Source: Jimgerdemannia flammicorona
Lineage: Eukaryota
Direction of reading: 5' to 3'
Length of the DNA: 32,306 nt
Assembly: GCA_003990765.1 (NCBI GenBank)
Contig: RBNJ01000355.1
Coordinates: 1 to 32,306 of the forward strand
A program made the translations under genes and the position numbers. How positions within the stretch are numbered: position 1 is the stretch's first letter; each line of letters opens with the position of its first letter. The notes under the pieces are model-generated. The model was not told the DNA's origin and did no database searches. It was given only the letters and a program-made list of their open reading frames with translations. Positions 3,190 through 32,306 of this stretch are shown one piece after another.

Positions 3190-4190
3190 CAGCTAAGACT
3201 TAAAAGAAAGTACTGTCATTCCTGGTACTAGTATTCTACTATAAAAGATTTATTAAGAAGTTTGACCAAATTGCTGCCCCAATTAGAATCCTTCTCAAGA
3301 AAAGAGTGCTCTATAAATAGATAGAACCACTAGAATTAGTCTTTGGAAAACTTAAGTTCTGCATAACTATAGTACTAATCCTTATATGACCCAACTTACA
3401 AAAGCCATTCATCTTGTATATAGATATCTCTAAAGATGACCTTTGAGTAGTTTTAGTCCAAGAAGAATCTGACCAATAGTACTCTATGATAGCTAATATA
3501 AGCAGAGCTACTAATTAGCAATAAACCAATTATAGTAGTATTAAACTAGAATACCTTATAGTTATATAGCTAGTTACTCTGTTCAAACACTATCTTATTA
3601 GAAAAAGGTTCACTCAGATAACTAACTATATAGCTCTCAAATAGCTATTTAACTACTGGAATTCTTGCCAACTAGATCCTTATCCTATAGAATTACAAAA
3701 TCACTATTATCTACAAATAGTGCTCCCAAACAAATTGAATCAATTCAAATCGAATCGAATTGAGGGTCATTTGAATCGAATCAAATTGGGGATTTTTCAA
3801 TTCAAATTGAGTTTGAATCAAATTGAATTCAAATCAAATTGAGGGTCCAATTTGAAACCTATTTTTAGAAATGTACATAATAACTCGACAAATATATGTC
3901 TAAATTCAATGATCTTTAGCTTTTTAGATTCCCCTATATAATAGGAATCTAACATATTAAAGATCATTGAATTTGGATGTGTATTCGTCAAGATATTTAA
4001 TTTCTAAAAATAGAGTTTGAATCAGACCTCAAATCAAATTGGACCTCAATTCAAATTGATTCAAATCGAATTGGGCCTCAATTTGATTTGAAGTTTTCAA
4101 ATCGAATCGAATTTGAGTCAATTCCATTCATTGGAAGTACTATCTACAAAGCTGGAAAAGCTCACCACAATATTGATATACTTTTATACC
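3190..4190 (+). pseudogene. pol: Ty3/Gypsy connection/RNase H (decayed), split by a MITE
   Basis: SFLVLVFYYKRFIKKF, KPFILYIDIS, NYSSIKLEYL, KHYLIRKRF..ITNYIALK*L. The reading ...NYKITIIYK resumes after the MITE as YKAGKAHHNIDIL (equivalent to Y.PGK.N..ADALSR). Confidence 0.85.
3718..4142. mobile_element. 425-bp non-autonomous foldback MITE, hAT-like
   Basis: Perfect 8-bp TSD tctacaaa (3710-3717 and 4143-4150). Termini tagtgctcccaa...ttggaagtacta form imperfect TIRs starting TAGT. Subterminal arrays of aatcg/aattg/aatca pentamers on both arms and a central palindrome near 3900-3975. Removing it restores the RNase H frame. Confidence 0.9.
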
Positions 4191-6331: not shown

Positions 6332-6555
6332 TGTGGTCTGATATAATAAGTAAATAACATAGTATAGCCAGGTGATATAAATACTCAATATATTATATTA
6401 TATCTAGTTCACCATATAGACTACTACTCATAATTAGCTAAAGATACTAAATCAGATTTATTGATCTGTATCCTAAGAATATACCTGTTTCCATTAGACA
6501 TATCTATACATATATATGTACTAGATATAGTTGTACCTACCAGACATACCTGTAT
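6332..6555 (+). repeat. Candidate start of the Gypsy-1 3' LTR (continues at 24064 after the LINE block)
   Basis: TGTGG start follows a purine-rich tract (decayed PPT-like aaagaatagtctagagactag) just after the last coding remnant. The LINE A TSD shows that 6555 and 24064 were contiguous. No second LTR is available for confirmation. Confidence 0.35.
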
Positions 6556-6619
6556 TGTTTTTATTTTTATTTAATTTTTTTATAGTCACAAGGACTTCTA
6601 CTTTATTACCAAACTATCT

Positions 6620-9600: not shown

Positions 9601-10266
9601 AGGTACTAAACAGTTTTCAAAGTTCTCTAAATATTGACTCTTCAGCATTCAGCAGTCAACATCCAGTCAATCCTCAAGTCCAACCCTGTCACCCAATAAG
9701 TACAGACAATACAATCTCCCCATCTAAGTCTCCCAGTATTCACTAATGAACTCAGATGTTCAACTTCCTTCCAGACTTCCACACTATCACTCCTACCAGC
9801 TATCATCTTCTCTTATCAGATCTGTCTATCTTCTCATCATATATCATATTAAAGTCCTCACCTAGACAGTCAATTCCTATCTCTACCAATGCTCCAGACT
9901 CTTGTAGCCCTTGAATCTATTCCACTCTCTCTCCTCTTTCCACTAGACAATAATATGATCCAATAGTCAAGAGTCTTCAGCCTGGTCTCTTTTAAACTCC
10001 TTACACACTCTGCTATCCCAATGTCCAATATTCCTAATATCCTCCTTGCTCTTTCTAACCAGAATGCCCACACACCTATACCATATAGCCACACTACCCC
10101 ATATCTTTGCCCAGTCTAGAGTATCTAAGTCTCCATTATAGCCAACTTCCTGTAGTAGGAACAAATCAGCATCCAGTCCCTTCAGCCAGCAGAAGATATT
10201 TCTATATCTCACTGCTCCTCATAGCCCATTGAAATTCAAAGAGAAGATTCTAGTTATATTATTTAT
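6620..10266 (-). pseudogene. LINE A ORF2 (AP endonuclease-RT-zinc knuckle), decayed
   Basis: Start ATG>ATA. RIFSLNFNGL*G...IFCWLKGLDADLFLLQE (APE), FLDQEKA, RVLQGDLL (QGDPLSP motif), FTDD (FADD), C-terminal PEHW..EC. Confidence 0.88.
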
Positions 10267-10289
10267 ATTGAATAATATTTATTAAAGAA

Positions 10290-11853
10290 TAGTTGTCCAC
10301 TCTATAATCCATACTCACTACATATATGTATCATCTGTAATATTCAGGTTCCTTTCTGCCTTACTCATCTGTCTCTCTCTGCTGAGCCTCGAATGCCTCT
10401 AAGATCTCCTGATAATCAGCACTATCCACTTCTTCTATATCTGTCCAGTACTTCTCATTCATTACCTACCACTTTGCCAGTCCCTTTCTTGGTCCCACAG
10501 ATATGAAGTTCAGTCATTCATAATTATCAGAAGTACTGCCTCTCTTTCATCATCTACTTGATATACCTCAGCTTCTAGCAAAGCTACCATTATCTTATCT
10601 CAGAGTTTCTGTGAGATCTCCTCATCTTGCAGGATTTCTCTCCAGTATCTCTTGCTGTATACCTGAAGTTCTCTCCCCCCAGCTCCTTAGCCACTATATT
10701 TGCCAGTGTTTTCCACAGCTATTTCTCCTCATCAACAGCTTCCTTCACTCTCTGGGCCACCCCCTTTCCCCCTTCCACCTGCTCTCTCTCTGCATTCATC
10801 CTTACTAACTCATCTTATTCCTCCTCTAGCAGATCCTGCAGTTTGTTATCTCCTCCAGCCCCTGCCAGCACTCTATACTGAGGGCACTCCTCCTCAACTA
10901 TCTCTTCATCTTCCACTACTGTACTCTGTTTGAAGCCCCCACTCTTCCCCAGGATCTCCTTTGGTACTGCTCCCTTCTCCCCTGTCCAGACCCAGATACT
11001 TACTCTCAACCCAACATCTTCAGCAGCAATTCCCCCCTCTACCCCCCCTCTCAACTTTGCCAACAGATCCTTCTGAATTCGCCTCTCCTGTACTCTTTCC
11101 CAGGCTGTCTGATCCAGTCACACCTTCTTGCTATATATGTATGATCTCTACTACCATCTTGGTCTCAAACTCTTTCCAGGTCAATCTCTTCTACTCAGCA
11201 GCCCCAGCCAGATCCTCTAATATCTCCAGCAAGTTCTCTTCTTCCTCTGGCATCTCTTTTACTCTCAAGGCCTTATACTCTACAGATCCCCATTTGAGGA
11301 CCACTGGCTAGTTTCTCACTTTCTCCATATTCTCATTGCCTGCCAGCTATACTCTGACATCTATGTCTCTTGTCCTGAACTCTATACCTTTCCATATCCA
11401 AAATCTAATATTCATGATATTTCCATACTTCTGGATGGCCTCTACAATCAACTCTCTGACCATCTCCTTCAATACTATAGGTATATCCACTACTATCAAC
11501 TGTACCACTTGGGGGTTCCTGTATAAGCACTGAGCCATAGGGATTGCCACCCTCCACTCACTACCACTTCCTTCTCCATTACTCCCAGCAGCACATCCTC
11601 TTTCTCAAAGCCCACCTCTACCCCTTTCAAATTCTTCAAAAATTTCACCAAGGCTGCTCCTTTCACCTCCTGGAAAAGAAGCCCTAGAATCATCCTCACA
11701 GTTATGACTAAGCCTCAGAAATACAATGTAATAGTAAATTCTGACCTTAATTTCTTGAGTAACAGAACTGCTATCAGGCCCATTATACTATCTACTAGAT
11801 CTCTGAGTCTCATGCCCACTCCATATCTAGATCCATTATCAACTATCACATCT

Positions 11854-11856
<3 letters not shown>
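10290..11856 (-). pseudogene. LINE A ORF1, central and C-terminal part
   Basis: RMILGLLFQEVKGAALVKFLKNLKGVEVGFE and NPQVVQLIVVDIP...YGNIMNIRFWIWKG are homologous to ORF1 of B and C. Confidence 0.8.
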
Positions 11857-11889
<33 letters not shown>

Positions 11890-11934
11890 GTTACTTGGAC
11901 TCCAACATTTATTATCAGTCTATTAATAAGTTTA

Positions 11935-14900
11935 CATTATACCTTCCCACTACCCAATCCCCATAGGGGGGTCACTCTCCCCACCTTTACAAACAAAGAC
12001 CACTTTCTCACCCACGATTCCAACCCTTCCCCCACTCTGCCTACATATTTTCTCCACCAAATGACACCTTCAACTACCCTGCAGCTCCCAACCCAGCCAC
12101 CAGCCTGTCAAGGTGTCTTCCATAAGGCTATCCCACTGCAGCAGCTTGACCTCTAAGCCTAGTCTCCTCCCATCCTTAAAAACAAATAACCAGTAACTGG
12201 CCAGCCCCTCCCAAATGGCCAACACCCAGCCTAATGTAAGCCATTCCTTCCCCACCCCCCCTACCAATCTATCTCTCAAATCCTCTCACTGCCCCTGCAT
12301 GCCAACTCTACTACACACTACCCCCAAATGAACCCTGATGGTCTGCCAAAAGGTACTAAGTACCTCACACTCTCCTAGCCAATGTTCAGGCATCTGTACA
12401 AATCCCCCTTCCTGCCCTACATTATAACACTCTTCACAGTTGAAGCAGCCTCCCTCGACAAGGTGATCTGAGTGGAAGTTGAGCATGACATTCTGCCTCA
12501 GCATGCACCACCAGGCCACCCAGTACTTCGGCAGCATCTACCTCCTCACCTCAGCACTCTAGGCCCAAATGCAATACCAGTTCCACTCCTCACCGATTCC
12601 TACTCCTTGCCAACTACTGGGCCACAGATCCTGGCCAGGTCTCCATTGGCATTTGACCCCATCACTAATGTCAAACTCAATTAAGAGAATGCCACCTAGT
12701 AACACTCGGTCCCATCTCCACATTGCCAGGTCCCAAGCTGCCTCTCCTTTATTTCCCTGCTACCAAATTCCAATGTGGTGCACCCCTTCTGCCACTCTCC
12801 ACTAGAAGCCTTTGTATCACAATTGTTTGGTATTTCAAAGGCCAAAAAATGCTAGGAGATCACCAGTCAAACCCTTAGGTAAGGACCTCATCTCCCAGAC
12901 TTTCTGCAATAGGGAGACCAACCTCCCCCTCTCAACTCCACCACTCTCTTCATCCACCACGCTCTCAAGCAGTGCAGCCTCTTAGGAAAGTCAACCAGCT
13001 CAAGTCCCCCACTTGCCACTGGTAAGGACAAGACCTCCTAGCTGATCTGACTCCATCTTCCAGCCCAGATCCACCCCTTGGCCAGCTTCATCAATCACTT
13101 CACTGCCCAAGCTAGGAAGTCCAGATAATAAGCCAGATACTATAACTTCGGCAGCCAATACACATTCAGAATCAAAACACGCCCAGCCAGAGACAATTGG
13201 CGACCCCCCCAACTCTGCAGAGCCTCCTCCCAGATTCCAACCCACTGCTCCCACCAAAGTCTGGGCAAAACTGACCCTTATACTGACAGATAAATACCCA
13301 AGTACCATACTGCCTCACCAGTAGGGACAATGGTTCCAATAATTTCCCCTCCCACCAGACCATTGCCTAACACCATTGCTTTGTACTTATGCCAATTAAG
13401 CTTAGTCCAAGAGTTCTTCTCATACCACTCCACTATTTCCTTGAGCCTCTCAATATCTGCAATTGATCCCAGGCTGACCACCATGTCATCTGCAAAGGCC
13501 CCTACTTTCCACTCAATGCCAAAGATAGAGAGCCCCACTATCTTCTGCCTGATTCTGTCCATGAAGGGCTCCAGGGAAAGGACATACAAAATGGGGGACA
13601 GTGGGTCCCTCTGGAGCACCCCCCTACCCAGGGGAAATACTACCCCTCTGTGTCTATTACACATGAGTGCAGCCCTACTTTCTTCCAGTAGGCTGACCAT
13701 GGCTGATCTGAACTGGTACAGGACCCCAATCTTATCTAATACTTTCGCCAGCCAGACCCACTGCACCCAGTCATAAGCCTTCTCCTGGTCCAGAAAGGCC
13801 AGTCACCCATCCAGTCCACTGGCTCATGCCCCTTCAATAACTCTATGAACTCAGGCTGTGCTGTCCCTAATGAGCCAGCCTCCCAAAAAGCCCCTCTGCT
13901 CATCACCCAAGACTTGCTGGGCCACCTTTTGCTGCCTTGCGACCACTACCTTGGTAACCAACTTTCTGTCCATATCCAGCAACATAATCAGCCTCCAGTT
14001 CTTCCAGTCCTCTTGCCTTCCTTTGTTCTTATAAAGCAATGTCACAAGCCCCAGATCCTGTTCCCCCACCCATCTCCCCATCTATAGAATCCAATCACAC
14101 AGTGCCATTATCTCACACAGTACTCCTGGAACTTCCACCATCTTCTTCCAGAAGTCCCAGAGCAGACCATCCTCCCCAGATGCTGTACCCAATGTTGTCA
14201 TGGCAAGAACCTGGTAGATCTCCTCTTCTTGAACTGGCAGCACTAATTCACCCAGCCCTTCTACTTGTGTAGGGTGCCAATCCTCCAATGCTTGGTCAAT
14301 GGCTTCAGTATCTGCCCCACCCTCCTCCTCACTCCACAATCCACTCCAATGCTCCTTTAATGATCCAAGAATGTCTTGTACACCATGCACCAATATACCA
14401 TCTGCATTAAGCACTCCCTCCCACCTTAATTGCACCCTCCTCGCCTGAAGGGCTCTTGTTAGAAACTTTGAGGGTCTCTCTCCTTCCTCCAACCCCTGCC
14501 AATGAAGCCATACCACCAGACCCTGTACCCTTGCCTCTTCCTCTTTCTGCAACACCTATTGTAGTTCAACCACCTCCATTTTTGCCCTTATCAATCTCCA
14601 ATCCTCCTCTCTCTCCAATGTCATTAGTCTCACCCAGTCCTCCAAGAGTCTAGATAGTCTACTAGAAGCCCATCACACCCATCGCCTCCTCTGCTTCCCA
14701 GCCTCCTTGGCAGCCTCACTCCAGTAGGTCCTGGCTATCTCCTTCATCCTCATCCACCGAATACCAATTGGGGCACCTTCCTGCCTCCAGTACTCCACTT
14801 TTAGTTGAATATCTTCAGCCCACTCATCCCACTAGACCTTATCATCTAATAAGGAGGAGTTGAGATGCCAATATCCAGGCCCATCCCCACTCTCCCCAAA

Positions 14901-15605
14901 ATGTCTCTGCTCTAAAAGCTCCCAATGATCCAACCAAGGACACCATTCTACCTCCAGTGATTTCAAGACATCTAAGCCCCAGCAGCTGGCTGTCAGAGTC
15001 CAATCAATCCACATCCCCAGGCCCCCAGCCCAGTGCATATACACCCTCCTATCCCCCCAATACTCTCTACCCACATCTACCAGAGCACTCAGTCTTTCCA
15101 CCTCCTTCCATGCTGCCAGTCCTCTACTCTGATCCTCAGCTCCCCATCCTCTATCAGTTCTATCTCTCAATACATCCCAGACCATATTGAAGTCCCCTCC
15201 GAGTACATCCACCCCAACCTCTGTAAGAATTCCACTCTCCTGTAGGCCCTTCACCGAATCCACACACTCACCCCATATTGTAGAGTAGTAACAGGAGCCC
15301 ACTGTGACCAGCTCCCAACCTGTGTGTATCCACTCTCCCCAGACCAATCTATCCCCCTAACTCTGCATATCCCTTATCTCCCCTCTGCCTTTCTGCATCA
15401 GAATCCCAACCTTGCCCTTCCAGACTGCCTCACCTCCCCATTCCTTCTTCCATCCCAGTCTATCCAAATCATTCTCACACCTGACATCCTGCAAGAGGAA
15501 GAGATCGGCCTCCAATCCCTTCAGACAAGTAAAAATGTTCTTATGTCAATAAGTATCCCATAACCCATTCATGTTCAAAGAAAAAATGTTGGTTGTACTA
15601 TTCAT
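11935..15605 (-). pseudogene. LINE B ORF2 (APE-RT-CCHC), premature stops
   Basis: MNSTTNIFSLNMNGLW..., DLFLLQD, VLGGDFN, IDWTL, WLDHW, GPGYWHLNSSLL, GERPSKF, NWRLIMLLDMDRK, FLDQEKAYD, GVLQRDPLSPILY, AFADD, YLGI, CEEC...PEHWLGEC. Confidence 0.93.
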
Positions 15606-15624
15606 AGTGAAGAATAGTGTGGTA

Positions 15625-17663
15625 TCAAGTTCTTTCCTACTGCTCCATATTCATCTCCTCCTGCACCAAGTCCAGATTATGTTCTGCTGTCACTGCCTCC
15701 TCTTCAGGCCTCTGAGCCTCCAATCCAGCCAACAGCTCATTCATCTCCCCATCTGCCCTCTCTTCAAATTCCTCACAGTACTCCAGGCAGGCCTCCGGCC
15801 AGAGCTACAATCCATGATACTTGGTCCAGCAGTATTCAGCCCTCTCTCCAACAACTTCCGCCATCTCTACCTCTCACTCCTTATCTACCTCATAGCCTTT
15901 CTCCTCCAGATATACTACAAGAATTTCCGCCTTCAATGCCTTCACCACCCCCTCCCCCTGCAGGATCCCCACCCAATACTCATTGCTCATTACTCTCAAA
16001 TCCACCTCTCCCAGCTCCTTAGCCACTAGGTTGTTCATCATCCTGCACATCCAAAGTAGGTTCTCTACCTCCTTTCCTCCAGGGGTCTCTGGTCTCCCAC
16101 CATCCAGCATTGTGGTGTCAGCCCCAGCACTTGCAGTCTCATTCCACTTCACTGGGATGTCCACCAATTCCTCCTCACCAGCTGCCACCACTCGTCCCCC
16201 TTTTGCCACCTCCAGAACTCCAAATTGCACTCGCTGGGCCCCCCACATTGGCACATCCTCCACCACCCTGCTCTGGGAAGCTGGGCCTCACCTGATAAGG
16301 GAAGTAGGGGTAGGGGAGTCCTCCCATGCCTTATCCCAAACCTCCAGCATACCATCAGTATATGGATTATTGCCAGTCACCTCTCTGTTCTCACTGGTCT
16401 CCTTCCCAGCACTCCCACTACTCTTGCCTGCCCAGACACTCCCTTTGGCCCCCCCCCATGTCCACCATTCCACTCATATCCTTCAGAGACCTACTCACCA
16501 TCTTCACCAGCAGTTTCTCCTATCTCTTATGCCCCTGATCTTGTACCCACTGCTCCTTGCTCACTTGAATCCACCTCACATCTACCACCTCCAAGTGCAT
16601 CACCTCCTCAAAGGCCTTCCAAGCCTTTGCCTGCTGCTCCACTACACCACTCAACTCTTCCAGTGCTTCCAATAAATCCTCTTCCTCCTCCTCACTCCTC
16701 TTCACCCTTGTCACCTTATACAAGATTGCCCCCCAGACCATTCTGGAAGGCCAGTCCCTTGCCTTCCCAGTGGCTTCTTTCCCTACCAGCCAAATCCTCA
16801 CATCCACATCCCCAGTCCGGAGCAAGGTCCCCTCCCAGACTCTGAATCCAATATCCACCATCTCTCCATACTCTGCCATGACCTCCTCGACTCTCCTTCT
16901 TGTCTCCACTGCCATCACTGTGGGCACCCCTTTCACCAGCAATTGGACCACCCTGGGATTCCATTTCAGGTAGCATGCCATCAGAATACACACCTCCCCA
17001 ACTATCAATCCAACCTTCAGTGCTTCCTCCAAAGGCTCAGCCTCCTCAAAGCCCACCTCCACTCCCTCCAGTCTCTTCAAAAACTTTATGGACACTGCTC
17101 TGGCCACCTGCTTAGCAATCAGCCCCAGCACCATTTTCACCATCACTGCTAGGCCCTGGAAGCACAGTGTCACTGCGAACACTGAGATCGATTTCTTGAG
17201 TAATAGTGCCACTGCCAGGCCTGTCACACTATCTGCCAAATCTCCCTATCTTCCAAGCCCCAGTTGCTCAGCCATGCCATCCAAAGTCATATCTGGATTT
17301 TTTTTCCAGATTAGCAGTCCCATCTCCATCAGCCATAATGCCCCCCCCAGCCACTACACCTCCAGCCCCACCACCCCCCCTGCCAAGAGCTACTCCCCTC
17401 TGTACTGCTACCTTCTCTGTTTCCTTCCCTTTCCTCAGCCAACCCTCCAGCCCTGATGTCTGCATTCTCCCCTTCACTATCTTGGCAAAGCTTGCTCTCC
17501 CAGATCCCTGTCCTCCACTACCTCCTCCTCCCCTTCCATGTCCACCTGCCAGCAGCTCCCTCATACCTCCCCCCAGACCAGGGCCTCTCCCCACCTACTG
17601 CCAGTCGAACACACTCAGGCCACCCTCTCCAGTATGTACCTCAGATTACCTGTTGGTTGCCAT
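15625..17663 (-). pseudogene. LINE B ORF1 (Gly-rich N-terminus, RRM-like core, coiled-coil)
   Basis: ATG at 17663. Pieced from ORFs 17268-17594, 16520-17239 and 15874-16266. An extra T in the T8 run (17298-17305) shifts the frame. It lies directly upstream of ORF2. Confidence 0.85.
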
Positions 17664-17778
17664 GTTGCTAGTCTCTTTTCTCCAAAAATAATATTGTAGT
17701 TGCTTTCCAAAGATTGTGTAACCCGAGTGGTACCAGAGAGAGTTGATCACATCTGGATTTTTTTCCAGATTGGCAGTC

Positions 17779-17854
<76 letters not shown>

Positions 17855-17899
17855 GTCACTTGGACTTCCCTTTATTACTGCCATCCATAATAATAATAA

Positions 17900-20800
17900 T
17901 AATACAATATCACCCCATCCCCTCAACTGATGCCCCTCAGATCTACTCCTCCACTCTCCACACCTCTCTGCTGGAGGATGATCCAGTCACCCACCACCTG
18001 AATCCTCTCACCACTTTTCTGTACAATACACTATACCAAACCTCTGTGACTCCCCCCACTGGGCCCTTACCCTTGCCACCAGCCATTCAAAATATCCAGT
18101 AGTAACTATTCCCAACATGCCACCCTATCTCCAACTCCAACCCACTGACCCTCCTCAAATCTATATTTCCAATGCCCAGCCATCCCAACCCATATGGCCA
18201 GAGCCCAACCAAAGGTCAGCCATTCATCTCCTACCCCTCCAACCAACCTATGGTGGAGCTCTCCCCACCTCCTCTCTTCTCCTCCCTCCAGGGCTCACAA
18301 CTCTAAACAGTCTATGATATGATACCAGAATACCCCCAAAATGTCACACTCACTAAGCAAGTGTTCAGGCATCTGTATTACTCCCCCTTCCTGTCCAACA
18401 TCAAATCATTCCTCACACTCAAATGTGCTACCAGCCACTAAGTGCCCAGACCAATAGTTCAATATCACATTCTACCATAGGACTCACCACTATACCACCA
18501 AAAACTTGGGGGGTAGCTACTACATCACCCACTTGCTCCAAATCCAGAGCCCATTCCAGTCCCACTCCTTGCAAATCCCAACCCTCTGCCAGGCTTCAGG
18601 CCAAAGGTCCCCACCTAAGCCCCGCAAATACTCCATTCTATTTCCAAGCTGAAAGTCCTCCCCCAAAACACTGCCCAGCAGTAGCCTGTTCCATCTCCAC
18701 ATCTGTGGTCCCAATCCTCCTCACCCTCCGCACCCTGCTCCCAAAGTCCAATTTTCTTATCACCATCCACCATCTCCCACCAAAAGCCCTTATACTGCAT
18801 CCTCCTGCTCTCCTCCAAGGCCACCATTGCATGCAGGTCTCCAGAATCTCGACAGGGGGAATACCAGGCCTCCTATACCCTCTGCATGAGCAGTACCCAC
18901 TCCTGATCCCTCAGCTCACTCACTCTCCTCAGTCACCAGGCTCTCAAGCAGTAAAGACATTTAGTAAAGTCCACTAAACCCAGTCCACCTCTTTCCACTG
19001 AGAGGGTAAGAACCTTCCATCCTATCCGACTTTGTTGCCCCACCCAGATCTATGATCTCACCATCTTCAATATTCTCCTGACCACCCAAGCAGAGAAGTC
19101 CAGATAATACTCCACATATTACAACTTCAGCATCCAATATACATTCAGCACCATCACCCTTTCTGCTAAGGATATGTGCTGACCTCCCAAGTACAAAAGC
19201 ACTGTACCCCACTCCAGGAGTCATTAATCCCACCAAGCACAGAGAAGAAGGGACCCAAACACCAAAAAGTAGATCCCCAGGTAATGAACTAGTTCTCCTG
19301 CTGGCACTACCATCCCAATCATATCACTGCCAATGATCCCACCACCTAGCACCAGAGTCTTGAATTTGTACCAATTGAGCTTAGCACCAGAGCCCTTCTC
19401 ATACCACTCTACTGACCTCCTCAATTCCCCCACATCTGCCAATGAGCCCAGTCCAACCACCATGTCATCTGCAAAAGCCCCCACCTTCCAATTTATCCCT
19501 AGAATGTTCAACCCCCCAATTTGATGCCAGATCCTGTCCAGTAGGGACTCTAGGGAGAGGGCATACAAGAAGGGTGACAAAGGGTCTCCCTGTGGCACCC
19601 CACGACCAAGAGGGAAAGTTACACCTCTGTGGCCATTGATGACCAATATAGCCTCTAACTATTTTGCAAAAGACTGATCAATGACTTTCAGAACCCCAGG
19701 GAAACACCAACTCATTTGAGCACCCCCTCCAACCAGACCCTCCTCACTCTATCATATGCCTTCTCCTGATCAAGAAAAACCAATCTGCCATCCACCTCTT
19801 CAGCCCGGGCCCCTTCAATCACACCATGTACCCAAGCCATCCTATCTTGGATCAACTGGCCCTGACAAATCCTTATTGCTCCACCCTCAGAACTTGCTGA
19901 GTGATTCCCTACAGTCTCAGCACCAATATCTTAGTCACCAGTTTACAGTCTATGATAAGTAGTATGATCAGCCACCAGTTCTTCCAATCCTCCTATCTCC
20001 TCTTATCTTTGTAGAGCAAGGAGACCAGCCCTAGATGCTGGCCCCCAATCCAAGTTCCAGACCAAAGAACCTCACTACACATTTCCACCATTTCCTCCAA
20101 TACCTTGGCCACTCCAGCCATCTTCTTTCAAAAATCCCAGAGAAGTCTATTTTCCCCTGGAGCCTTGTCATAGCCAAGACCCTGCAAACTTCTTCTTCTC
20201 TCACTGGATCCCCCAGAGTCACCAGGCCCATTGCAGGGTCCAGATACCAATCCTCCAGCTGCCTCTCAATGGTCAAAGCATCCTCTCCCCCTTCCTCTTT
20301 ACTCTACAAATCCTCTCACTGGGTCCTCAGCAATCCCAGGATTGCTAGAGTCCCCACCACCATCTCTCCATCTACATCCAGGACCTCATCCCACTGCTGC
20401 TTAGTTCTCCATACTTGTAATATTCATGATAAAAGCCTAGTGGGTCTCTCCCCCTCCTCAAACCCCTGCCACCTCAGCTATACCACCATCCCCTTCAGCC
20501 TAACCTCTTCCTCCCTTCATAACACATCCTTAAGCTTCTTCACTTCCTCTTGGATCCTCACAATATGCCAGTTGGCCACCTCCCTGTCTTCTAGCACCCC
20601 TGCCCATCTCCCCATGAGTGCTCCCAATTGCTGTGAGGTCCATAGCACCCTCCACCACCACTGAGCACACCTGCCTCTCCTGGCTTCCCTCCAGTACCCC
20701 TGAGTACTCGCTTTCAGCCTCCTCCAGCAGTCTCCAATCACCAGACCCTGGTCCCACCATCTCCCAATTTTTCAAATAACCTCTTTCTCCCAGTCCACCC

Positions 20801-21576
20801 ATACAGCCCCATCCTCCAACAAAGAAGAATTTAGCCACCAATGTCCAGGCCCATCCCCACTTCCTCCAAATCTCCCCCCACCTAACAAACCCCAGTGATC
20901 TGACCATAGGCACCAAACCACCTCCAGTGTAGTCCAGACATCCACTCTCCAGCATTCTGCCATCAATATCCAGTCTATCCTGAAATCCAATCCTGTCACC
21001 CAGTGAGTATAAATTTGATGATTGTCCCAAAACTGTCTCCCAGAATCAACCAGAGAACTCAACCTCTCAATCTCCAACCACTCATCCAACCCACCACTTC
21101 TGCTCCTCATTCCTCTCCTACCATTAGTTCTGTCCATCCCCTTGTCCCACACCATGTTGAAGTCACCCCCCAGGCAGTCAAACCCAACCTCACCCAAGAC
21201 ACTGGCCTCTTTCAAACTTCAAATCCAATCCACCCATTCCCCTCTCTCTGCTGGGCAATAACATGACCCAACTGTCAAAGAGCTCTATCCAGGCCTCTTC
21301 CATACTCCCCACACCAACTGAGACCCCCAATGTCGAATGTCCCTGATGTCCCCCATCCCATTCTGAACTAGGATATTCACCTGCCCCATCCACACCACAG
21401 CCCCCCCCCCATTCCTTAGTCCAATTCTGTAAGTTCACATCTACCTTATAACAGATATCCTGCAACAAAAAGAGATCTGCCTCTAGTTCCTTTAGCCATC
21501 CAAATATATACTTTCTCCTAGCTGCCCCCCATAACTCATTCACATTCAAAGTAAATATTCTAGTTATACTGTTCAT
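17900..21576 (-). pseudogene. LINE C ORF2 (APE-RT-CCHC), premature stops
   Basis: MNSITRIFTLNVNELWG...EADLFLLQD, CLGGDFN, RIDWIL, WSDHW, GPGHWWLNSSLL, FLDQEKAYDRV, GVPQGDPLSPFLY, AFADD, YLGI. Confidence 0.93.
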
Positions 21577-21608
21577 AATGAATAATGTTTTGGATTTGAG
21601 ACCCCAGC

Positions 21609-23523
21609 CTAGTATTTCATACTCATCTCATCCCCAGCCAGATCTAAGCACCCCTCTGCTTCCAAGTCCCCCTCCACGACAGCCTGAGCATCCAATAACT
21701 CTAAGATTTCTTGACATTCCACCCCATCCACCACCTCCATCTCTAACCAATAGTCCATGCAGACCACTCTCCACTTCTCCAATCTCTTCCTCAAGCCCCA
21801 CAAGTAAGCTGCCCAATCATTCATGATCTCTCTAAGTTCCTCCTCTCTCTGATCATCGATCTGGTATTCAACTAATTTCAAGAGGACTGCCAGGATCTCA
21901 TTCCTCACCTTTCATGGCACCTCCTCACTATGAAGGATTTCCTCCCAATGCCTCTTTTCTATAACCCAGAAGTCCTCTTCCCCCAGCTCCTCAGCTGCCA
22001 CCCCTTCCAGAGTCTTCCACAGCCACTCCTCCTAATCCACTGCCTCCACCATACCCTGAGCAACCTGATCACCCCCCACCTTTGGGTCCACCAAAGTGCT
22101 CCTCCTTACTGACTCATCCTATTCCTCATCTGGTATATCCAGCAACTTCTCCTCACCCCCTGCCCCACTCAGGACACTATACTGAGGGTGAACCCCTTTG
22201 CTCATTTTTGTATCTACCTCTACACCACCCTCCCTCTCCTCCCTTGGTCCATCCTGGGTCCCACCTTGGGCAGTCCCATGTTCTCCTGCCCAGACACTTG
22301 CACACAATCCTGCTCTCCCATCTCCTTTACTGCCACTAGCCCCACCACTACTCAACTTCTTCAGTAGCTCTTTCTGGATTCTCCTCTCCTGCATCTTCTC
22401 CCAGGTCCCCTGATCTATCTGGATCCTCTTCCTGTTGACTACTTCCATCACTGTCTTGGCTTCATACTCCTTCCAAGCCAATCTCCTCCTCTCGACTGCA
22501 CCTGTCAGATCCTCCAGAGCCTCAAGCAAATCCTCCTCCTCTTCCTGAGTCTCCTTCACTCACAAGATCTTGCACTCCACTTGTCCCTACTTCAGGGTTG
22601 CCAGCCAATCCCTCATCTTCCCCATGTTCTCCTTTCCAGCCAGCCTCACCCAAATGTCAACATCACCAGTCCAGAGCTCTGTACCCTCTCAGACCTTGAA
22701 TCTGATATCCACAATCTCACTATATTCCTTGACTGCCCCCACAATCAACTTTCTGGCCCTCTCTCTTGACACTGTAGGAAGATCCAGCACTGTCAACTGC
22801 ACCACTCAGGGGTCCCAGCACATGCACCTGGCCATAGAGACTACAACCCTGCCCACTGTTACTCCCTTCTCCATGGCAGCCAGCAATACTTTCTCTTCCT
22901 CAAACCCCACCTTGACCCCTTCTTTCTCCTTCAAAAACTTCACTGACACTGCCCCTTTTGCCTTCTGTGCCACCAGCCCCAAGATCATCCTTGCAGTCAC
23001 TGCCAAGCCCCTGAAGCACATTGTGATGGCAAATTCTGACCTTGATTTCTTGAGTAATGGTGCTGATACCATGCCCATCACCCCATCTGCCAGGTCCCCA
23101 GACCTTGTGCCCACCCTCTGTCCTGAACCATCAACCACTGTTACATCTGAATTTTTTTCCAGATCCCCAGCCACAGCCCCATCAGCAGTCACATCTCCAG
23201 CCCCTACTCCCCCCCCTCTCCTACCACCAGACACTCCCCTGGGCACTACTCCTATCCCCCAGCAGTAGCTGTTGATGCCTTCCCCAGGCCCAGCCAACCA
23301 TCAAGACCAGAGGCAATTCTCCCATCTTAACCTTGTTAGCAAAGGTCAACCTCTCTCCTCCTCGCTGCCTCAGACTGCCCCTCCCTCCACCACCAGTGCC
23401 TTGGCCAGCCATTGAGGCCCCCAGTATCCCCAAACCATCTCCTCTCCTCCCCACCTGTTGCCAGCCAAAGACCCCACTGCTCCCCTGGACAGCACGCTCA
23501 CCAGTACAATCATTGCCATCTAT
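21609..23523 (-). pseudogene. LINE C ORF1
   Basis: Probable start ATG>ATA at 23523. Pieced from ORFs 23221-23454, 22806-23297, 22119-22559 and 21609-21908. Homologous to ORF1 of A and B, and ends 32 nt before the ORF2 ATG. Confidence 0.85.
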
Positions 23524-23634
23524 GTTGATAGTTGTTGATCACCAAAAATGTTGTAAAAAGTGTTGTCTGAGTCTTGTGTCACCCGAATGGTACTGGTGAA
23601 AGATGTGTCCATTCTTTTTGGCAGTCCCCTTGCT

Positions 23635-24049
23635 ATCAGTAGTCCTGCTCTCTCTAGCTACTACTCTCCCAGCCCCATTACTCTCACTGTTATAGGCCAC
23701 TCTACCAGGCCCTATATCTCTCACCATCTCCTTGTCCTTCTTCAGCCAATCCTCCAATCTAGTCAACAGAGATCTCACCTTAATCTTGTCAGCAAAGCTC
23801 ATCCTTCTGGATCACTACCTTTCAGCTCTAGCTCTATTTTTTCCACCTCCTCTTCCACCCATAAGAGAATCCAGCAGACTCCACCCCAAGCCATGACTCT
23901 GCTCTACATACCGTCAGTTGAATGCACTAGGGCCACCCTGTCCACCATGTACCTCAGAATGCTCATTAGTCAATATGTTGCTAATACCCATTCTCTGTTA
24001 TGAGAGCTGTCTGAAGTTTGTGTAACCCAAATATTACTGGAGAAAGGTG
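23635..24049 (-). mobile_element. Displaced 5' end (5' UTR and ORF1 N-terminus) of LINE A
   Basis: SFADKIKVRSLLTRLEDWLKKDKE...DSKGTA aligns with LINE B SFAKIVKGRMQTSGLEGWLRKGKE...DGDGTA. It ends in the shared 5' motif (tgtgtaacccaaatattactggagaaagg) next to the TSD. Confidence 0.88.
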
Positions 24050-24072
24050 AGACACACCTGTATCCCCAGTTC

Positions 24073-24134
24073 AAGACATTCGGCACCAAGTCAATCAGCA
24101 CTAAAGACATTCTGCACCAAAACAATCGGTACCA
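24073..24134 (+). repeat. Two 31-bp imperfect tandem repeats (each made of two ~15-bp subunits)
   Basis: aagacattcggcaccaagtcaatcagcacta / aagacattctgcaccaaaacaatcggtacca. It lies in the sequence into which LINE A inserted, possibly the LTR U3 of Gypsy-1. Confidence 0.7.
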
Positions 24135-24408
24135 AAGATGTACTCCTAGCTAGTACCCACTAAGATAGACATTCTCAGATACATGTATCGGACACTCATT
24201 TTTGGAATTGTTCAATCATTCTACTGTTCTACCATTTATTCACTCTACCACTTATTCACTCCACCACTCATTCCATTGCCCCCCCAACTCTTATCCTCTT
24301 CTGTTTCTTCTACCCTCTGTCTCCTTATTTCTATTGGGTTGGGCCAGACTTTATAGCCATTTCCTTTTCAGGCCCTCTTCCTTTTTCAGACTTCCCAAAT
24401 AAGTCATA

Positions 24409-25130: not shown

Positions 25131-25398
25131 AACATCTCATCAATGACAAAGTGCTCTAAGAGAGAGGTGGCATAAATGTGTAACAAATAAAGAGTGTAAG
25201 AATTTGAGCATATATTCCTTTTTTAAATTCCTTACTTCCCTCACTCATGATATATATTGTGACGTCTACAATTGACCCTGTCCTAATTCGGAGTACCCTG
25301 TAACCACAAGATCAGATGACATTATAGCGCGATAACTAGTGACCAGCCCAATCTGCCAAGTGATTTCACTAAAAGAAGACAAGATAATCCAAGCCAAA

Positions 25399-26457
25399 AT
25401 GAAGACCACGTTATTTAAGGAATCATACTCCACCTCAGAGATCGGCACCAAAGAACCAAGTACCTACCCCATAATGCCTCCCATTCACCAATCCAACCAG
25501 ACCTCCCGCTGCTCTACCCCTTTGCCTGGCCCAAAGACCCTGATCTTTGAAGCTATCAAGAAGGCCATCTGGTGCCTAGATACTTCCGAACACTTGAACT
25601 TCTACACCAAGGACCTTGGACACTTCATCAACTACTAGTATATAATGACCCAACAGCTCAAAGATACTACCGAATGAATGACCCTCTGGCATGACTATGA
25701 AATTGGACACTGCCTTCGCAATGAGACTCAAGAAGACGACCAGGAAGACCTCATTACCGAATTGTTAACCACCAGCCGGCTAATCAAGAGAGCCCTCCAT
25801 GTCCACCAAATCTTCTGCCATATTCCCTGTGCTATAGCACACTTACAAGGAGTGACTGCTGGCAGTCTTGCCCACCTCTCAACTGAAGATGCAGACTGGA
25901 TAGAATCAGAAGTAGCCAACTCTATTGGCAGCAACTGCATCGCCGTAGGAAGCCAACAAACCAAACCTACTCAGCCAGGTTTCCACACCACCCCACTCCG
26001 AGACAACCATCAAGGTCACCTAATGAGTCTTATAGAGATATTTGAAGGACCACCCATTACCATAGAAGCACTCATTGGAGCTACCCCAACTACCCACCAC
26101 CCTGTCAGCCACAATTCACATCTCATCATTTGGGAACTGAATCAAGAAGAAGCCCAAGAGGTCCCCATCTTTGAAGAGGAAGCCCAAGAACTCCAAAACC
26201 CTGCCCCTGAAGAAACCCCCTCTGATACTGAAACTGACAAGTCTTCAGAAGAAGAAGAGGAGCAACAGAGAGTCTACTAGTCCTCTGTCTGCATTCAAGC
26301 TATTCAAGGGTTGGAGAATGTTGTTGAAGATGACTGGCCACTTTTCTACCCCCTCACCTCTTGGCTGGTGCTCCCACTCTTTGAAGAACAGGATGAAGAA
26401 GTCACAATCCAGCAAGATGATTGGTCCACTAACAAAGGGTACTTTACCATTCAGTGA
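25399..26457 (+). pseudogene. Unknown ORF inside the putative LTR (about 350 codons, acidic C-terminal part)
   Basis: ORFs 25339-25638 and 25678-26280 and the downstream sequence are in one frame, separated only by single TAG/TGA stops. Composition is protein-like; no family recognised. Confidence 0.6.
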
Positions 26458-26585
26458 TTCAATGTCTGGTCAGCCAACATTTGTCAGCAAGTTAGCAACA
26501 CCCGTTTTCAGCAATACCACTCACAACATCCATATCCAGCACTAGCACTCATCTTATCCCAATTCAGCACAAACAATTATCACTT

Positions 26586-26750
26586 CTGTTTCCAGCATTG
26601 CTATCCAGTGCTACTGTTTTTAGCGTTTTGTCAGCAAGTCTGAATCCAGCATTGCTACCCAGCTCAACCAAATCCAGTGTTGCTATCCAGCACAACTGTT
26701 TCCAGCATTGCTATCCAGTGCCACCGTTTTCAGTGTTTTGTCAGCAAGTC
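26586..26750 (+). repeat. U3-like tandem repeats: two 55-bp copies flanking two shorter units; core tccagcattgctatccag x4
   Basis: 26586-26640 and 26696-26750 differ at four positions, all C/T. Confidence 0.85.
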
Positions 26751-26837
26751 AGCCCTTTACATCGTGCAAGCCAATAGCATAGCGAATGTTTACCACAACA
26801 TAGTATACCTTAGCTGTGCCCATAGCTAGCAAACTTG

Positions 26838-26869
26838 TATAAATAACCCATATTCTTAGAGTGAATAAA
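26838..26869 (+). promoter_or_regulatory. LTR TATA box and polyadenylation signal
   Basis: TATAAATA at 26838-26845 and AATAAA at 26864-26869, followed by a GT-rich tract. This is a typical compact U3/R/U5 junction downstream of enhancer-like repeats. Confidence 0.6.
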
Positions 26870-27049
26870 TCTCAGCCAGTTTGTGTTTAAAAGTAAAAAG
26901 GATTACCGAGAAACCTCACTGCCTCCAAGAGACCGGATAAATTCTGAGAACAAGATACCTAGAGCAATGATCGCTCGAGGTTTGAGTTAAAGAATTTTCT
27001 CTTGCCACGGAAAAAAAACGTTACCCAACCGCCACCATTCGACCACCAT

Positions 27050-27420
27050 TTGAGACCTGGAAACCCAAGGATTCAAGACCATGACTGCCACGCATTCAGA
27101 CCATTATTCGGACCATGCATTCGAGATTCAAGACCCGGAAACCCAAGGAACCCAAGTTACCCAGCCAAAGGATACAAGGCCGCTGCCAAAGACCCGAATG
27201 ACTGCCAGGAACCTTTCAAGTTAACCAAGATGGACGAGCGAGCCGTCAACCTCCGTTTTCCTGACCTACTGCACCACAAACCGCTTAAAGCCAAGCCCAT
27301 TGCCACATAAATTCAAGTTTGCTGCCAAGTTAATCGCCACCAGGAATGCCCTTTTCCACTAAACAATTGAGCCACCATCATTGAACAACCAAATGACCCC
27401 ATCATCAAACAATTGAGCCA
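27050..27420 (+). repeat. U5-region short repeats
   Basis: Recurring ttcaagacc and ggaaacccaagga units (27050-27155), and aaacaattgagcca twice (about 27361 and 27407). Confidence 0.65.
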
Positions 27421-27609
27421 TCGACATCCTGAGCCAATGAACAATCGAACTCCTACTATTATCAATTACCACACGAATTGAATGACCTGTCACATGACTA
27501 TCGACCTGCAAACATCACCAATGCCTTCAGTTATACATCGCACGCTTCACCAAGTGGCACATTGAGCTGTGCCAGAAGCAACTAGAGATATAAACCCAAT
27601 GCCACATTT

Positions 27610-27626
27610 TGGGGGCTCAACTGGGA
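27610..27626 (+). promoter_or_regulatory. Primer binding site, tRNA-Pro type
   Basis: TGGGGGCTCAACTGGGA, 3 nt after the terminal CA. It resembles the canonical tRNA-Pro PBS TGGGGGCTCGTCCGGGAT. Confidence 0.75.
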
Positions 27627-27676
27627 AAAGTTTTCAAAAGACTTAACCATTTGGCTCAAGAACCCAGCTATCTACA

Positions 27677-29500
27677 GTGGAGAACTTAGCAGGACCAAGT
27701 CAGCAACCAAACCAGGGGCAGCAACAGCCCTCCTCAGCAGAAAAGAAAGCCCACACCATTGTCAGAACAGTAGCCAGGACCTTATTCAACACCAATAGCC
27801 AGAAAACCGAATTAGAAGAAAGAAGTTATCCAGATTACGGTTTGACTTCAAGAGAAAGGAGACAACTCAGAGGACAACCAGAACTGCCCCTTCAGATCCA
27901 AGACTTAGGCCAAGAAGAAGAAGAGGATATCCCTGAGGAGTATCAGACCCTTATCCATAGGAAGAACTCAGACAGAAGTGATGACATAACTACTGTTGTT
28001 ACTCAAGTCACTCCACTAGACTGGGTATACTTTGAAACATCAGAGGGAGAAGAGGACTATCATCCATATCAACTGGAGCAAGATGACGATTGGGGATCAG
28101 ACTACCAAAGGGACAAATTCAACCTATACTATTATTCAGACAGTGACACAAACCCACAACAAGATGAACAAGACCTCACTACTTCACAACAGCAAGGGGC
28201 AGATGAACTCACTATCAGTTATATCAGTCCACTCCCACCATCAGTTGCTCAAACTTCAGTACCCTGGTCACTCACACCTTGCCACTATCACCAGTCAATC
28301 AGAAGATCTCCACCACTACCCAGGACTTCAACCCCAGCATTAATTAGAAGAGCCAGATTACCCTCACCCTCACCAAGACACTGCCCTCTGCCAGCACCAC
28401 TAGATCATCAAGTACTAGCACCACCACCTTCCCCACCACCCCGAGAATCTGCCAGATCCCCCACCCCTGAACAATACTCAGATAGTGAAGACGAGCCAGA
28501 CATGAGCTACCTTCAGAAGTTCCATGGTGTAGACAATGAAGATATCGAGGAATTCTTTGGAGAAATTGAAGTCCAAGCAGCCACCAAACAATGGGATGCT
28601 GCAAGAAAACTCAGAATTGTGGAGTCACTCCTGAGAGGACCAGCCCTACAGAGGTATAATCAAGCCAAGCAAGCCAGAGGAGGAATCCATGCAGAGGAAC
28701 TGAATGACAGCCTCCAAACTGATAGAAACCATGTAGCAAGGTACATGATTCACAAAGCCTGGCTCCGTACCTAGTTCAATGGATTCGAGCACCAACAAGA
28801 AGCACAGGAGGCTTTGACCTATATGAGCCAAGCTGTCAATGAAACTCCCAAAAGTTTCTACCATCGGATTCAAGCTCAAATGATCAAGGTGAACCTTCAA
28901 CCGGCAGTCCAACTGGCTTTAGCCTCAACTACCTTCCTCAATGGCTTATACCCAGAACTCCGAAGGCAAGTTATCAGGATAGGATATCGAAACATTGAGC
29001 AGCAAGTTGCTGGAGCACAAGGATGTTGGGAAGCAGATTATAGATCAGTACAACAAGTACAAGGGTATCCTGAGCCAATCCGAGCTGTAACCCCAAGGAC
29101 CAGAGGAACAACCATGGAGCAAGAGAATGTCTTCCTCAGAGCCCAGATAGCCAACTATGAGAACAGACCAGCACCCACAAATCCGACTCCATTCAGGCAA
29201 CCACAGCAGCAACCGCCATCAAGAGTTCAAGAAGACCCCATGACAATGCTCACCAAGCAAATCAGGGACCTGGCCATCGTGGTTGCCCAGCTGAACAACC
29301 AAGGTAGAAGACAACAAGACTACCGTCATGATAACAGACCAGACTACCAGCAACAAGACAACAGAGGTCCTGCCCCTGCACTACCAGCTGCAACTACAGT
29401 CTCATCAGTGACTGGTTCCTATGGTCCCACCTACTTCAACTGTGGAAATCAAGGCCACATCCAGAGGAATTGTCCAACGAACCAATCCACCCAGTCCAAT
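27677..29500 (+). pseudogene. gag: Gag: long acidic/Pro-rich N-terminal extension, capsid, CCHC nucleocapsid
   Basis: Capsid starts MSYLQKFHGVDNEDIEEFF..., with LLRGPALQRY, QAVNETPKSFYHRI and FLNGLYPEL. The knuckle is TYFNCGNQGHIQRNCP (first Cys tgc>tac). One in-frame TAG at 28772. Confidence 0.9.
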
Positions 29501-30154
29501 GACAGAAATGTCAACCTCTTTCAGATAGATGAAGAGACTCAGGAAATGGAAGAAGAAGCAGCCTGGCTCCAGAGTCAAGAAGATGACATCTACCCATACT
29601 TTGAGGCTTTTCCATCCAAGGTGACATGGGAAGCTGCCCCTGCAGAGACCAGAGGATGAGGAAGACCACGAAGGAACCCCCCACCTCAACTACCAGCAAC
29701 AATATCCACAGGCAAGCATCCGCGACATGGCCATTCTTCCTCAGACACTCCACAAGAACAGAAGAAGTGAGTTAGAAGAGATACTCCTGAACCAGAGGCT
29801 GGACCATCTAGGACAACCCTCAGCTCTACCCTGCCAGACCTTGAAGAAGATGAGCATATGAGCATAGAATCTTCAGCTGACGAAATGCCCATCAGGAATG
29901 AGAGACTACACCTCAAGAGACCAAGACACTGAAGGAGCAGCAAGCCCCATGCAGCAGCCTCACTTTGGGAACATATCCGCCTACAGAATGCTGGTCTTAC
30001 AGTTGAGCAAGTCCTCAAGAATGCACCAGAGGTCAGGCGAAAATTCCTGAAAGAAGCCAAGGAAGATACCAAGAGACTTCCAGTCCAAGGACCACACACT
30101 CAAGAACCTAGCACTATCCACACAGTCCATGAGAGCCAGCGACATGAACATTAA

Positions 30155-30525
30155 TCTACAAGACTCGTCAATGGAAAAGTGCATGGTGAAAATGCCAGAA
30201 TTCTCATTGATACTGGAGCAGCAGTATGCATCATCACCCAAAGGATGTTGGAGCGAATTGGATGAGGAATAGATGAAGGAACCAAAGCAAGAGTTATCAT
30301 GGCCGACAGATCAGCTTCCACACCCCTTGGACTTGTCAGAGACATCCCCATTCAAGTCGGAAAGACCTGCCTCAATGTACCCAAAGCTGTCGTGACCCCT
30401 GCAACCTCCTATGACCTGATCCTGGGAACTGACTGGTTAAGCCAAGTTGGAGCCAATATAGATATCAAGAAACAACTCCTGGTCTTCTCCATTCATGGAC
30501 AGAAGCACAAGGTGCCCATTGACTC
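30155..30525 (+). pseudogene. pol: Retroviral-like aspartic protease
   Basis: ARILIDTGAAVCII (DTG at 30209-30217), ADRSASTPLG and YDLILGTDWL, in the same frame as Gag. Confidence 0.93.
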
Positions 30526-30669: not shown

Positions 30670-31625
30670 AAGCGAACAAGAAGACTCTTTCATTGGAGTT
30701 ATTGGTGTTGAAGGCCTGGAAGAAAGCATTGATAGAGCCATTAATGTAAGGGTAGCACTTGAGTTTGTAGGACCTTCTGCTCAACCACCACCACCACTGG
30801 TAGAAAATTGGATCATGCGAGCCTTTCATCGAGGCATATGTGAACATTTCATCAGCTTCCACTCACCAAGAGATGATTGCAGCAATTGCTGAATCCTGGA
30901 TCTCAAGAAGGTTCCAATACCAGAAATTGATGACAAGGACAAATTGAAGCAAGCACCATCCCACAGCCGAATACAACCTCCAACCCCGAAGACCTTCAAG
31001 AAGACCTATAAGGAAGGACAGAAGATCTTTGCCCGCCAAACATTTGAGTCCCTTACCATCGAAGGAGAAAGCAACAGCTCTTACACTATCACCCGGGCCC
31101 TCCAGATCACACAGCCCACCAATGACAAGTATTGGAAGAGATTCCCCACCAGTAGGGAGGTCAAACAGCGAAATGAAGACTTTGTCAAGAAGGGACATTG
31201 TGATTGCAGAAAAACCTTTACCTGCTACTGGTGTGAACATCGAGATGTTCACCTCAGCAAAGATGTCTACAAGAGCCAAGTCAAGAGAAAGGATCCCACC
31301 CTGCAAGAACCTTGAATTCGCTGGGCCTATTGGAAGTGCAAAGAAATCAACCATGAAGGAGATTGCAAATTCAAGAGCAAGATCTCTATCTGGGACCTAC
31401 CATTGGAAGTTCTTGCCATCATTCACTGGTACTGTCACCCTCATCAAGGAAAGGAAGATATCAACCTTGCCTTCATCCTTATGGAAGCTCTGGACCCTCT
31501 AGGAAAGACTGGATTCAATTACACAAGAAACTCAAAGACAGGAGCTCACTGGCCTTTCTTCAAACTAGAGCGCATGGACTTCTCACCTACAATGGCAATA
31601 GCTGAAACACCATTTCTCAAAGCTC
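30670..31625 (+). pseudogene. Unassigned in-frame polyprotein insert with three Cys/His clusters and an F-box-like motif
   Basis: CEH-x10-CSNC (30839-30889), HCDC-x5-CYWCEH (31196-31240), [Y]WKC-x4-H-x3-C (31328-31366) and SIWDLPLEVLAIIHWY (31385-31432). Confidence 0.55.
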
Positions 31626-31627
31626 AA

Positions 31628-32038
31628 CCAATTATCCAGGTCAAGTTGCTTTCACCCTGGGCACAGCCACCTCTTGTACAAACAGAAGGATCAGTTGGTT
31701 ATGACCTCTGCCTCCCCTACCAAGCAAGAATCTGACCCAGAAGTATGAGGACTTTTGACCTACAGATTGCACTTGCTATACCACCTGGGCATTATGGACA
31801 ATTGGCCTCAAGATCCTCATTGGCAACCAAAGGAGTCACAGTAGAAGGAGGAGTCATCGATCAGGACTACTGAGGTCCCCTGAAGGCCATCATCCACAAT
31901 TCTAGTAGAACCAGCTGATTCTTCAGCCCTATGGAAGCCATCTGCCAAATCCTATTTATCAAGACATCACAGCCAATAATCCAAGAGGTAGACCAACTAG
32001 AAGATACCAACAGAGGACAAGGAGGCTTTGGAAGCACC
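31628..32038 (+). pseudogene. dut: dUTPase domain of Gypsy-2
   Basis: GSVGYDL, GHYGQLASRSSLA, GGVIDQDY*G (DYRG, cga>tga), EAICQILF and RGQGGFGST: all five motifs are present, in frame with Gag-PR. Confidence 0.95.
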
Positions 32039-32306
32039 AATAGAAATCTACGGACACCACCTATCGAGGTTCATTTAGCAACAGTTACTCAATTCCGGCA
32101 AATGAGACCCCACATCTGCCGCCCAATCCGAGTAAGAGAAGACATCCTCCTGCAGCCCTACCAGCAAAAAGGCCTAGATGTGCACCTACCAGTAGAAGCA
32201 AACAACTTGATATTTGCACCATCACTGGAGCTTCAAAAGGAATACCACATCCTCCTGGCTGAAGAATGAATTCATGACCAGATGTCACCAATCCACATCT
32301 CTATCA

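Follow-up and report, generated by a model that had tools for sequence, protein, structure and literature searches.

A conserved accessory gene within the long terminal repeats of Ty3/Gypsy retrotransposons in Jimgerdemannia flammicorona

Here we report a conserved accessory gene, under purifying selection, inside the long terminal repeat (LTR) of a high-copy Ty3/Gypsy retrotransposon in the fungus Jimgerdemannia flammicorona. The window analysed is a stretch of 32,306 nucleotides that makes up the entire contig RBNJ01000355.1 (C355) of an assembly of 231 Mb in 35,354 contigs (GCA_003990765.1). In keeping with a fungal host, PF00172, the profile of the fungal Zn2Cys6 family, matches this assembly 88 times. 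The element begins at position 25258 and runs off the contig end at 32306, the 3' LTR of this copy lying beyond the contig; all of its features given below are on the plus strand. Its 5' LTR, which belongs to what we call family A, spans 2349 bp (25258..27606, TGTGA...CCACA), and within it the gene occupies 25474..26457 (327 codons plus a stop), broken in the window copy by stops at 25636, 25675, and 26278. Downstream of the gene follow the main TATA box (TATAAAT, 26838..26844), the putative promoter of the genomic RNA, and, 26 nt past it, the AATAAA poly(A) signal (26864..26869), both located where a preliminary description of the window had placed them. The frame thus lies between the LTR start and these two signals, which place it probably in U3, the U3/R border itself being putative.

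A DNA search with positions 25258-26500 returned 1043 candidates, 40 of which were scored, at 89-100% identity (neither number is a copy number). Boundaries could be set for 28 of the 30 loci from this search that entered a boundary survey, giving 11 5' LTRs, 11 3' LTRs, 5 solo LTRs, and one unresolved case. Family A matches start at the TGTGA of 25258 and stop at the CCACA of 27606; the primer site follows the 5' LTRs, and the polypurine tract GCAAGGGGCAGA precedes the 3' LTRs. Three complete relatives (C309, C86, and C2735) are 12.5-12.8 kb long and carry two LTRs each of 2.26-2.46 kb, with the gene-bearing region present in both. Their LTR pairs are 92.7, 92.0, and 88.6% identical, and the differences are mostly transitions (162/180, 186/189, and 187/244). 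The target-site duplications of the three copies are 4 bp long and fall in ATAT-rich targets (ATAA/ATAA, ATAT/ATAT, and ATAC/ATAT), by which the left duplication of the window copy would be the ATAT at 25254..25257. The 2.3-kb LTR starting at 25258 that the preliminary description had proposed was therefore recovered with the same boundaries in 5', 3', and solo copies. The expected duplication of 4-6 bp proved to be 4 bp of the ATAT type, not 5-6 bp, and in place of the shorter 3' LTRs devoid of this region that it had named as the contrary outcome, we found full-length 3' LTRs in which the region is present.

Selection on the frame was assessed in two sets of family A copies, 43 found by DNA search alone and 90 in total, about half of the latter coming from a protein query and hence biased. 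Among the 90 copies, shared T>C/A>G changes affect 67/154 synonymous but only 27/312 non-synonymous sites (ratio of non-synonymous to synonymous change, omega, 0.20; p 1e-17), and among the 43 they affect 51/163 and 22/339 sites. For the same class of changes, the other two plus frames give omega of 1.9-5.8. C>T/G>A changes confined to a single copy behave neutrally (omega 1.08, 43 copies), as expected after insertion, and it is the shared T>C/A>G changes that reflect active lineages. Indels agree with this picture: among 57 copies, the three indels inside the gene shared by at least four copies are all in frame and the seven frameshifts are all singletons, whereas shared frameshifts are common outside the gene. 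The frame is thus conserved among copies, against the possibility of non-conservation raised beforehand. The long frame that had been described as an open reading frame of about 350 codons is real, with 352 codons from ATG 25399 to TGA 26457 and three internal stops, but its length needs correction. Shared frameshifts occur upstream of the MPP codons (LTR position 217) at LTR positions 80 (20 copies), 149 (3), and 198 (2), and homologues with a full N-terminus begin with MP[PA], so that the start is most likely ATG 25474, giving 327 codons.

The relatives found in three protein searches were few (2; 7 of 1.84 billion representatives; and 7), all metagenomic, and unnamed or annotated as "hypothetical". 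As queries against the genome, these metagenome proteins led to two further Gypsy families, B and C. The proteins of family A are 31-32% identical to those of B or C, and B and C are 45% identical to each other; reverse transcriptase (RT) identity among the families is 42-45%. Family B is chromovirus-like, its integrase ending in a segment that resembles a chromodomain by eye. Its homologue is internal: the stop codon adjoins the polypurine tract of a 787-813-bp LTR in 23/30 loci, none of the 30 loci is a 5' or solo LTR, and the metagenome locus L132 has the same layout. Family C is another dUTPase-carrying Gypsy (primer site TGGTGCCCA), and here an LTR of about 1.54 kb encloses the homologue, which is present in 5' and 3' copies, in solo copies, and in both LTRs of one complete element. 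Selection is frame-specific in both families, with omega of 0.22 in B (30 copies) and 0.13 in C (20 copies), all of these copies having been found by protein query. The preliminary description had called the frame an orphan, which is not borne out, as homologues exist in two distant Gypsy families of this genome, in one of them outside the LTR. The cassette may first have stood between pol and the polypurine tract, as in family B, and later have been absorbed into the LTR, as the plus-strand priming site, at first right behind the gene, moved to a position ahead of the promoter; this direction, from the B layout to that of A or C, is not proven. A fourth, more distant branch at about 25% identity is represented by the proteins P0008, P0016, and P0018, which have no close copy among the genome matches scored. 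At one locus (L165, G000:C7580:5277-9023) a family C solo LTR is inserted in another family C LTR.

At least one stop is present in 40 of the 43 copies from the DNA search, the window copy included; three have none in the reference frame, and L051 is a natural unbroken copy. These stops might suggest a frame that is a relic without function or that simply reflects the composition of the LTR, a reading to which the lack of support for function from any known family or structure, and a low omega in the mirror minus-strand frame, would also lend weight. We regard it as very improbable, and for active lineages it is already largely refuted. The stops, 82/88 of which arose by transitions, as the preliminary description had claimed for those in the window, are mostly singletons or CpG transitions, and in each of the three families selection singles out the gene frame among the plus frames. 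The low omega of the mirror frame is explained by the third positions that it shares with the gene frame, and it gains more shared stops (18/44 versus 7/35 sites). In addition, the protein family is conserved down to 25% identity across lineages.

The region upstream of the gene contains a candidate TATA box of its own (TATTTAA, 25412..25418). In family A, the box TTATTTAA lies 62 nt upstream of ATG 25474 in 90/90 copies; in the window copy no ATG intervenes between the two, and ATG 25399 sits upstream of the box. The gene's ATG has an A at -3. Across the 90 nt around the box, 0/13 would-be synonymous sites are changed, compared with 67/154 in the gene, which fits cis-regulatory constraint at the box. 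The distance from TATA to ATG is 62 nt in family A, 72-73 nt in B (26/27 loci with upstream sequence), and 86-87 nt in C (18/18), and it is 80 and 65 nt in the metagenome loci L132 and L133; the boxes of B and C are canonical TATA boxes. All three families also have a second TATA downstream of the gene, followed 26-27 nt later by AATAAA, so that the layout of the main TATA box and poly(A) signal is the same in the LTRs of families B and C. The gene is therefore likely, on sequence grounds, to form a portable cassette that brings along a promoter and terminates at the poly(A) signal of the LTR, so that 5', 3', and solo LTRs could all express it. On the simplest reading there are two promoters. 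The upstream promoter would produce a short mRNA for the gene ending at the LTR AATAAA, and the downstream promoter, the sole one in the short LTR of family B, would produce the genomic RNA; with a start approximately at or just past AATAAA, the poly(A) signal at the 5' end would go unused. Every LTR, solos included, would then be a complete expression unit with the capacity to act in trans on full-length copies.

The preliminary description had instead seen a 3' accessory gene transcribed from the 3' LTR copy. That it is an accessory gene holds, but the sequence evidence points to a candidate promoter of the gene's own within the LTR, given the conserved TATA-like box in three families. We find it rather improbable that the gene is expressed solely from the 3' LTR, through a spliced or read-through transcript initiated at the main promoter of the 5' LTR, and that the upstream box is incidental. 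Retroviral genes that overlap U3 are commonly made in this way, several of the promoters reported for sag are outside U3 (PMC4667437), and the family B gene is present as a single 3' copy. Against this route, TATA box and ATG are similarly spaced in three families between which the flanking DNA can no longer be aligned.

The gene is predicted to encode a soluble, helical protein that ends in an acidic tail. In AlphaFold2 models of unbroken natural relatives, a conserved helical core spans about residues 20-151 (25531..25926; omega 0.13 in the 90 copies), with a short helix-turn-helix (HTH)-like pair at about residues 91-114. The N-terminus is basic. The tail (26119..26454; omega 0.37) contains 29% aspartate plus glutamate and has a net charge of -30 in an unbroken copy; in families A, B, and C, the tails contain 23-33% of these residues and 17-18% F/W/Y/L. 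No membrane segment was found, the maximum 19-residue hydropathy being 0.75. In fold searches, ParB/SopB/VirB DNA-binding domains recur among the best yet weak matches to model residues 68-154, all below significance, and DUF3102 or HTH clusters are also among the weak matches. The predicted order of helices is similar to that of ParB/SopB/VirB-type HTH domains and DUF3102 over about 80 residues, although the match is weak. A sequence-profile comparison with ParB/DUF3102 gave, at low power, an hhalign probability of 0.2% against a shallow ParB alignment and a single DUF3102 protein. The PF11300 profile has no matches in the genome, and no sequence likeness to Sag was found in Pfam or PDB.

The reading that we favour, at a probability of roughly 45%, is that the gene encodes a Tas-like transactivator or anti-silencer, a nuclear regulator that would switch on the main promoter in the LTR or lift its silencing. 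Such a regulator would fit the arrangement of the promoters, the acidic tail, the faint HTH likeness, the heavy load of transitions on the copies, and the short repeats of families A and C. The helical core would bind DNA. Its candidate targets are short repeats that cluster downstream of the gene, ahead of the main TATA, in families A and C; in the window, a cluster of short repeats containing CCAGCA at 26536..26737 may supply enhancer or binding sites.

The main rival is an RNA-level role like that of Rev, Rem, or CERV, in which the protein would bind a structured element of the genomic RNA and promote its export, packaging, or translation; we consider it unlikely. Families A and B, with an RT identity of only 45%, share a non-coding segment of about 245 nt after the integrase at 80% identity. 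In its predicted fold the two ends pair in a closing stem, and 7/56 pairs show compensatory changes. The N-terminus of the protein is arginine-rich, and the top named Atlas matches are RNA-binding. However, the predicted structure comes from 10 related sequences of two families, the family C element has no DNA match to the segment and yet retains the gene, and the long acidic tail better suits a transcriptional activator. The segment, which occurs outside the window at L139:981-1236 and, in family A, at L032:1325-1582, some 85 nt ahead of the 3' LTR, has no Rfam match; it is itself a candidate export, packaging, or translation element that may have moved between lineages.

A further alternative arises from the N-terminal motif QTSRCST (25498..25518), whose likeness to residues Q5-T11 of histone H3 (QTARKST) we noticed post hoc. 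Its commonest form is QTSRRST, in 26/90 copies. The protein could be a host-directed decoy, its H3-like N-terminus or the tail motifs DLIxF and Px[VI]LNF titrating chromatin readers, kinases, or adaptors, as Nef-like and histone-mimic viral proteins do. QTSRRST (family A) and RQTARRS (family B) matched host H3 (QTARKST and KQTARKS) better than 3000 shuffles, with p 0.0003 and 0.003, and p was below 0.02 in 6/8 N-termini tested; the two tail motifs are shared by B, C, and P0006. The observation was nevertheless made after the fact on homologous, hence not independent, sequences, p was 0.09 in family C and 0.06 in L132, and PDB searches with the N-terminus returned no histone. Moreover, the residue matching K9 is arginine, which cannot carry the mark, RRxS is also an ordinary kinase or import motif, and family A is without DLIxF. 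We therefore rate the decoy as quite unlikely.

A more elaborate form of the regulator reading, which we hold to be doubtful, combines several of these elements. The gene would be a cassette swapped among fungal Gypsy elements and encode a DNA-binding anti-silencing protein with an H3 tail mimic, and the many solo LTRs would serve as stand-alone regulator genes that rouse full-length copies in trans. A non-infectious retrotransposon would thus have evolved a switch comparable to Tas or VANC.

Several known systems resemble parts of this arrangement. The sag gene of mouse mammary tumor virus (MMTV) is reported to lie mostly in U3, to be preserved in solo LTRs, and to have a promoter within U3 (PMC4667437). 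The gene of families A and C is likewise a selected coding gene, probably in U3, that is kept in solo LTRs. It differs in having a fungal host and an env-less Gypsy retrotransposon as its carrier, and its protein has no membrane segment, unlike Sag, which is a membrane glycoprotein. In foamy viruses, a second promoter near the 3' end is described as driving Tas (Bel-1), a DNA-binding LTR transactivator (PMC7390438). The family B layout of internal TATA, gene, polypurine tract, and LTR is similar, but the foamy virus promoter is in env, whereas families A and C have both promoter and gene inside the LTR. The LTR protein showed no homology to Tas, and its transactivation would be a putative parallel. 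Extra conserved open reading frames are reported as aORFs 3' of pol in plant LTR retrotransposons (PMC7264820) and as ORF3s in bdelloids, where the same frame occurs in unrelated lineages carrying dUTPase (PMC5408684). As described there, those frames are in the internal region and env-like, enzymatic, or antisense; the LTR gene is read in the sense direction, encodes a non-membrane protein that belongs to no known family, and in two of the three families sits entirely within the LTR. VANC of Arabidopsis VANDAL elements is reported as a transposon-encoded anti-silencing protein that acts on short tandem repeats differing between related elements (PMC5735166). The short repeat clusters before the main TATA of families A and C are reminiscent of these targets. 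VANDALs are DNA transposons, no homology between VANC and the LTR protein was found, and any parallel in binding or demethylation would be by analogy. The available text of a survey of fungal LTR elements contains neither "dUTPase" nor "ORF3" (PMC3248453), although another paper reportedly mentions dUTPase (PMC2864245). In the main text of the open-access literature, we found no account of this protein family and none of a gene contained entirely in the LTR of a fungal Gypsy element. The earlier comparison with a complex retrovirus holds as an analogy of layout but not in its env or membrane aspect, since no env was seen by eye between the integrase and the polypurine tract, where the gap of about 330 nt from integrase to LTR has no long frame, and the protein is without a membrane segment.

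The rest of the element is that of a Ty3/Gypsy LTR retrotransposon, as its LTRs and target-site duplications, domain order, primer-binding site, and polypurine tract establish. The primer-binding site (27610..27627) is complementary, with one mismatch, to host tRNA-Pro(CGG): all six loci scanned are tRNA-Pro, and the two that match exactly have the anticodon CGG. By eye, a broken gag region with a CCHC knuckle (27647..29659) and a broken aspartic protease region (LIDTG, 30170..30510) follow. Ahead of the capsid-like part of gag, and in frame with it, is a long Pro/Asp/Glu-rich stretch of about 290 codons (27647-28530). The dUTPase that the preliminary description had read in the element (31631..32041, broken) was supported by PF00692 (E 1.7e-26) in the C2735 copy, in which RVT_1, RT_RNaseH, Integrase_H2C2, and rve also occur in Gypsy order. 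Between protease and dUTPase lie about 300 Cys/His-rich codons (30700-31620) with no Pfam match in the part of C2735 scanned. After the dUTPase and before RT, a segment (32060-32306, and L035:8100-8450) looks by eye like a degenerate dUTPase-like or beta-rich domain, and has no Pfam match. Families A and C insert into ATATAT-type targets with a 4-bp duplication, whereas none of the four 3' flanks seen for family B is AT-rich. Elsewhere in the window, positions 6500-24300 hold three tandem decayed elements on the minus strand that resemble long interspersed nuclear elements (LINEs), with poly(A) tails and, by eye, endonuclease and RT motifs; similar sequence interrupts the LTR gene in L045 and L049. 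A small element like a miniature inverted-repeat transposable element lies at 3742-4120, with arms 3821-3872/4000-4051 and 3879-3932/3944-3997 and AATCGAAT repeats.

LTRs are ordinarily non-coding, and MMTV sag is described as the standard exception (PMC4667437). The gene reported here represents a new protein family in an LTR position known mainly from complex retroviruses. Its occurrence both inside and just outside the LTR in distant lineages provides natural intermediates for the absorption of a gene by an LTR. If the gene has its own promoter, solo LTRs, which are usually deemed dead remnants, would be potential expressed genes. If it encodes a transactivator or anti-silencer, this would help to explain the spread of these element families in a genome whose copies show heavy C-to-T decay, and the independent evolution of retrovirus-like regulatory genes in retrotransposons would become a testable question.
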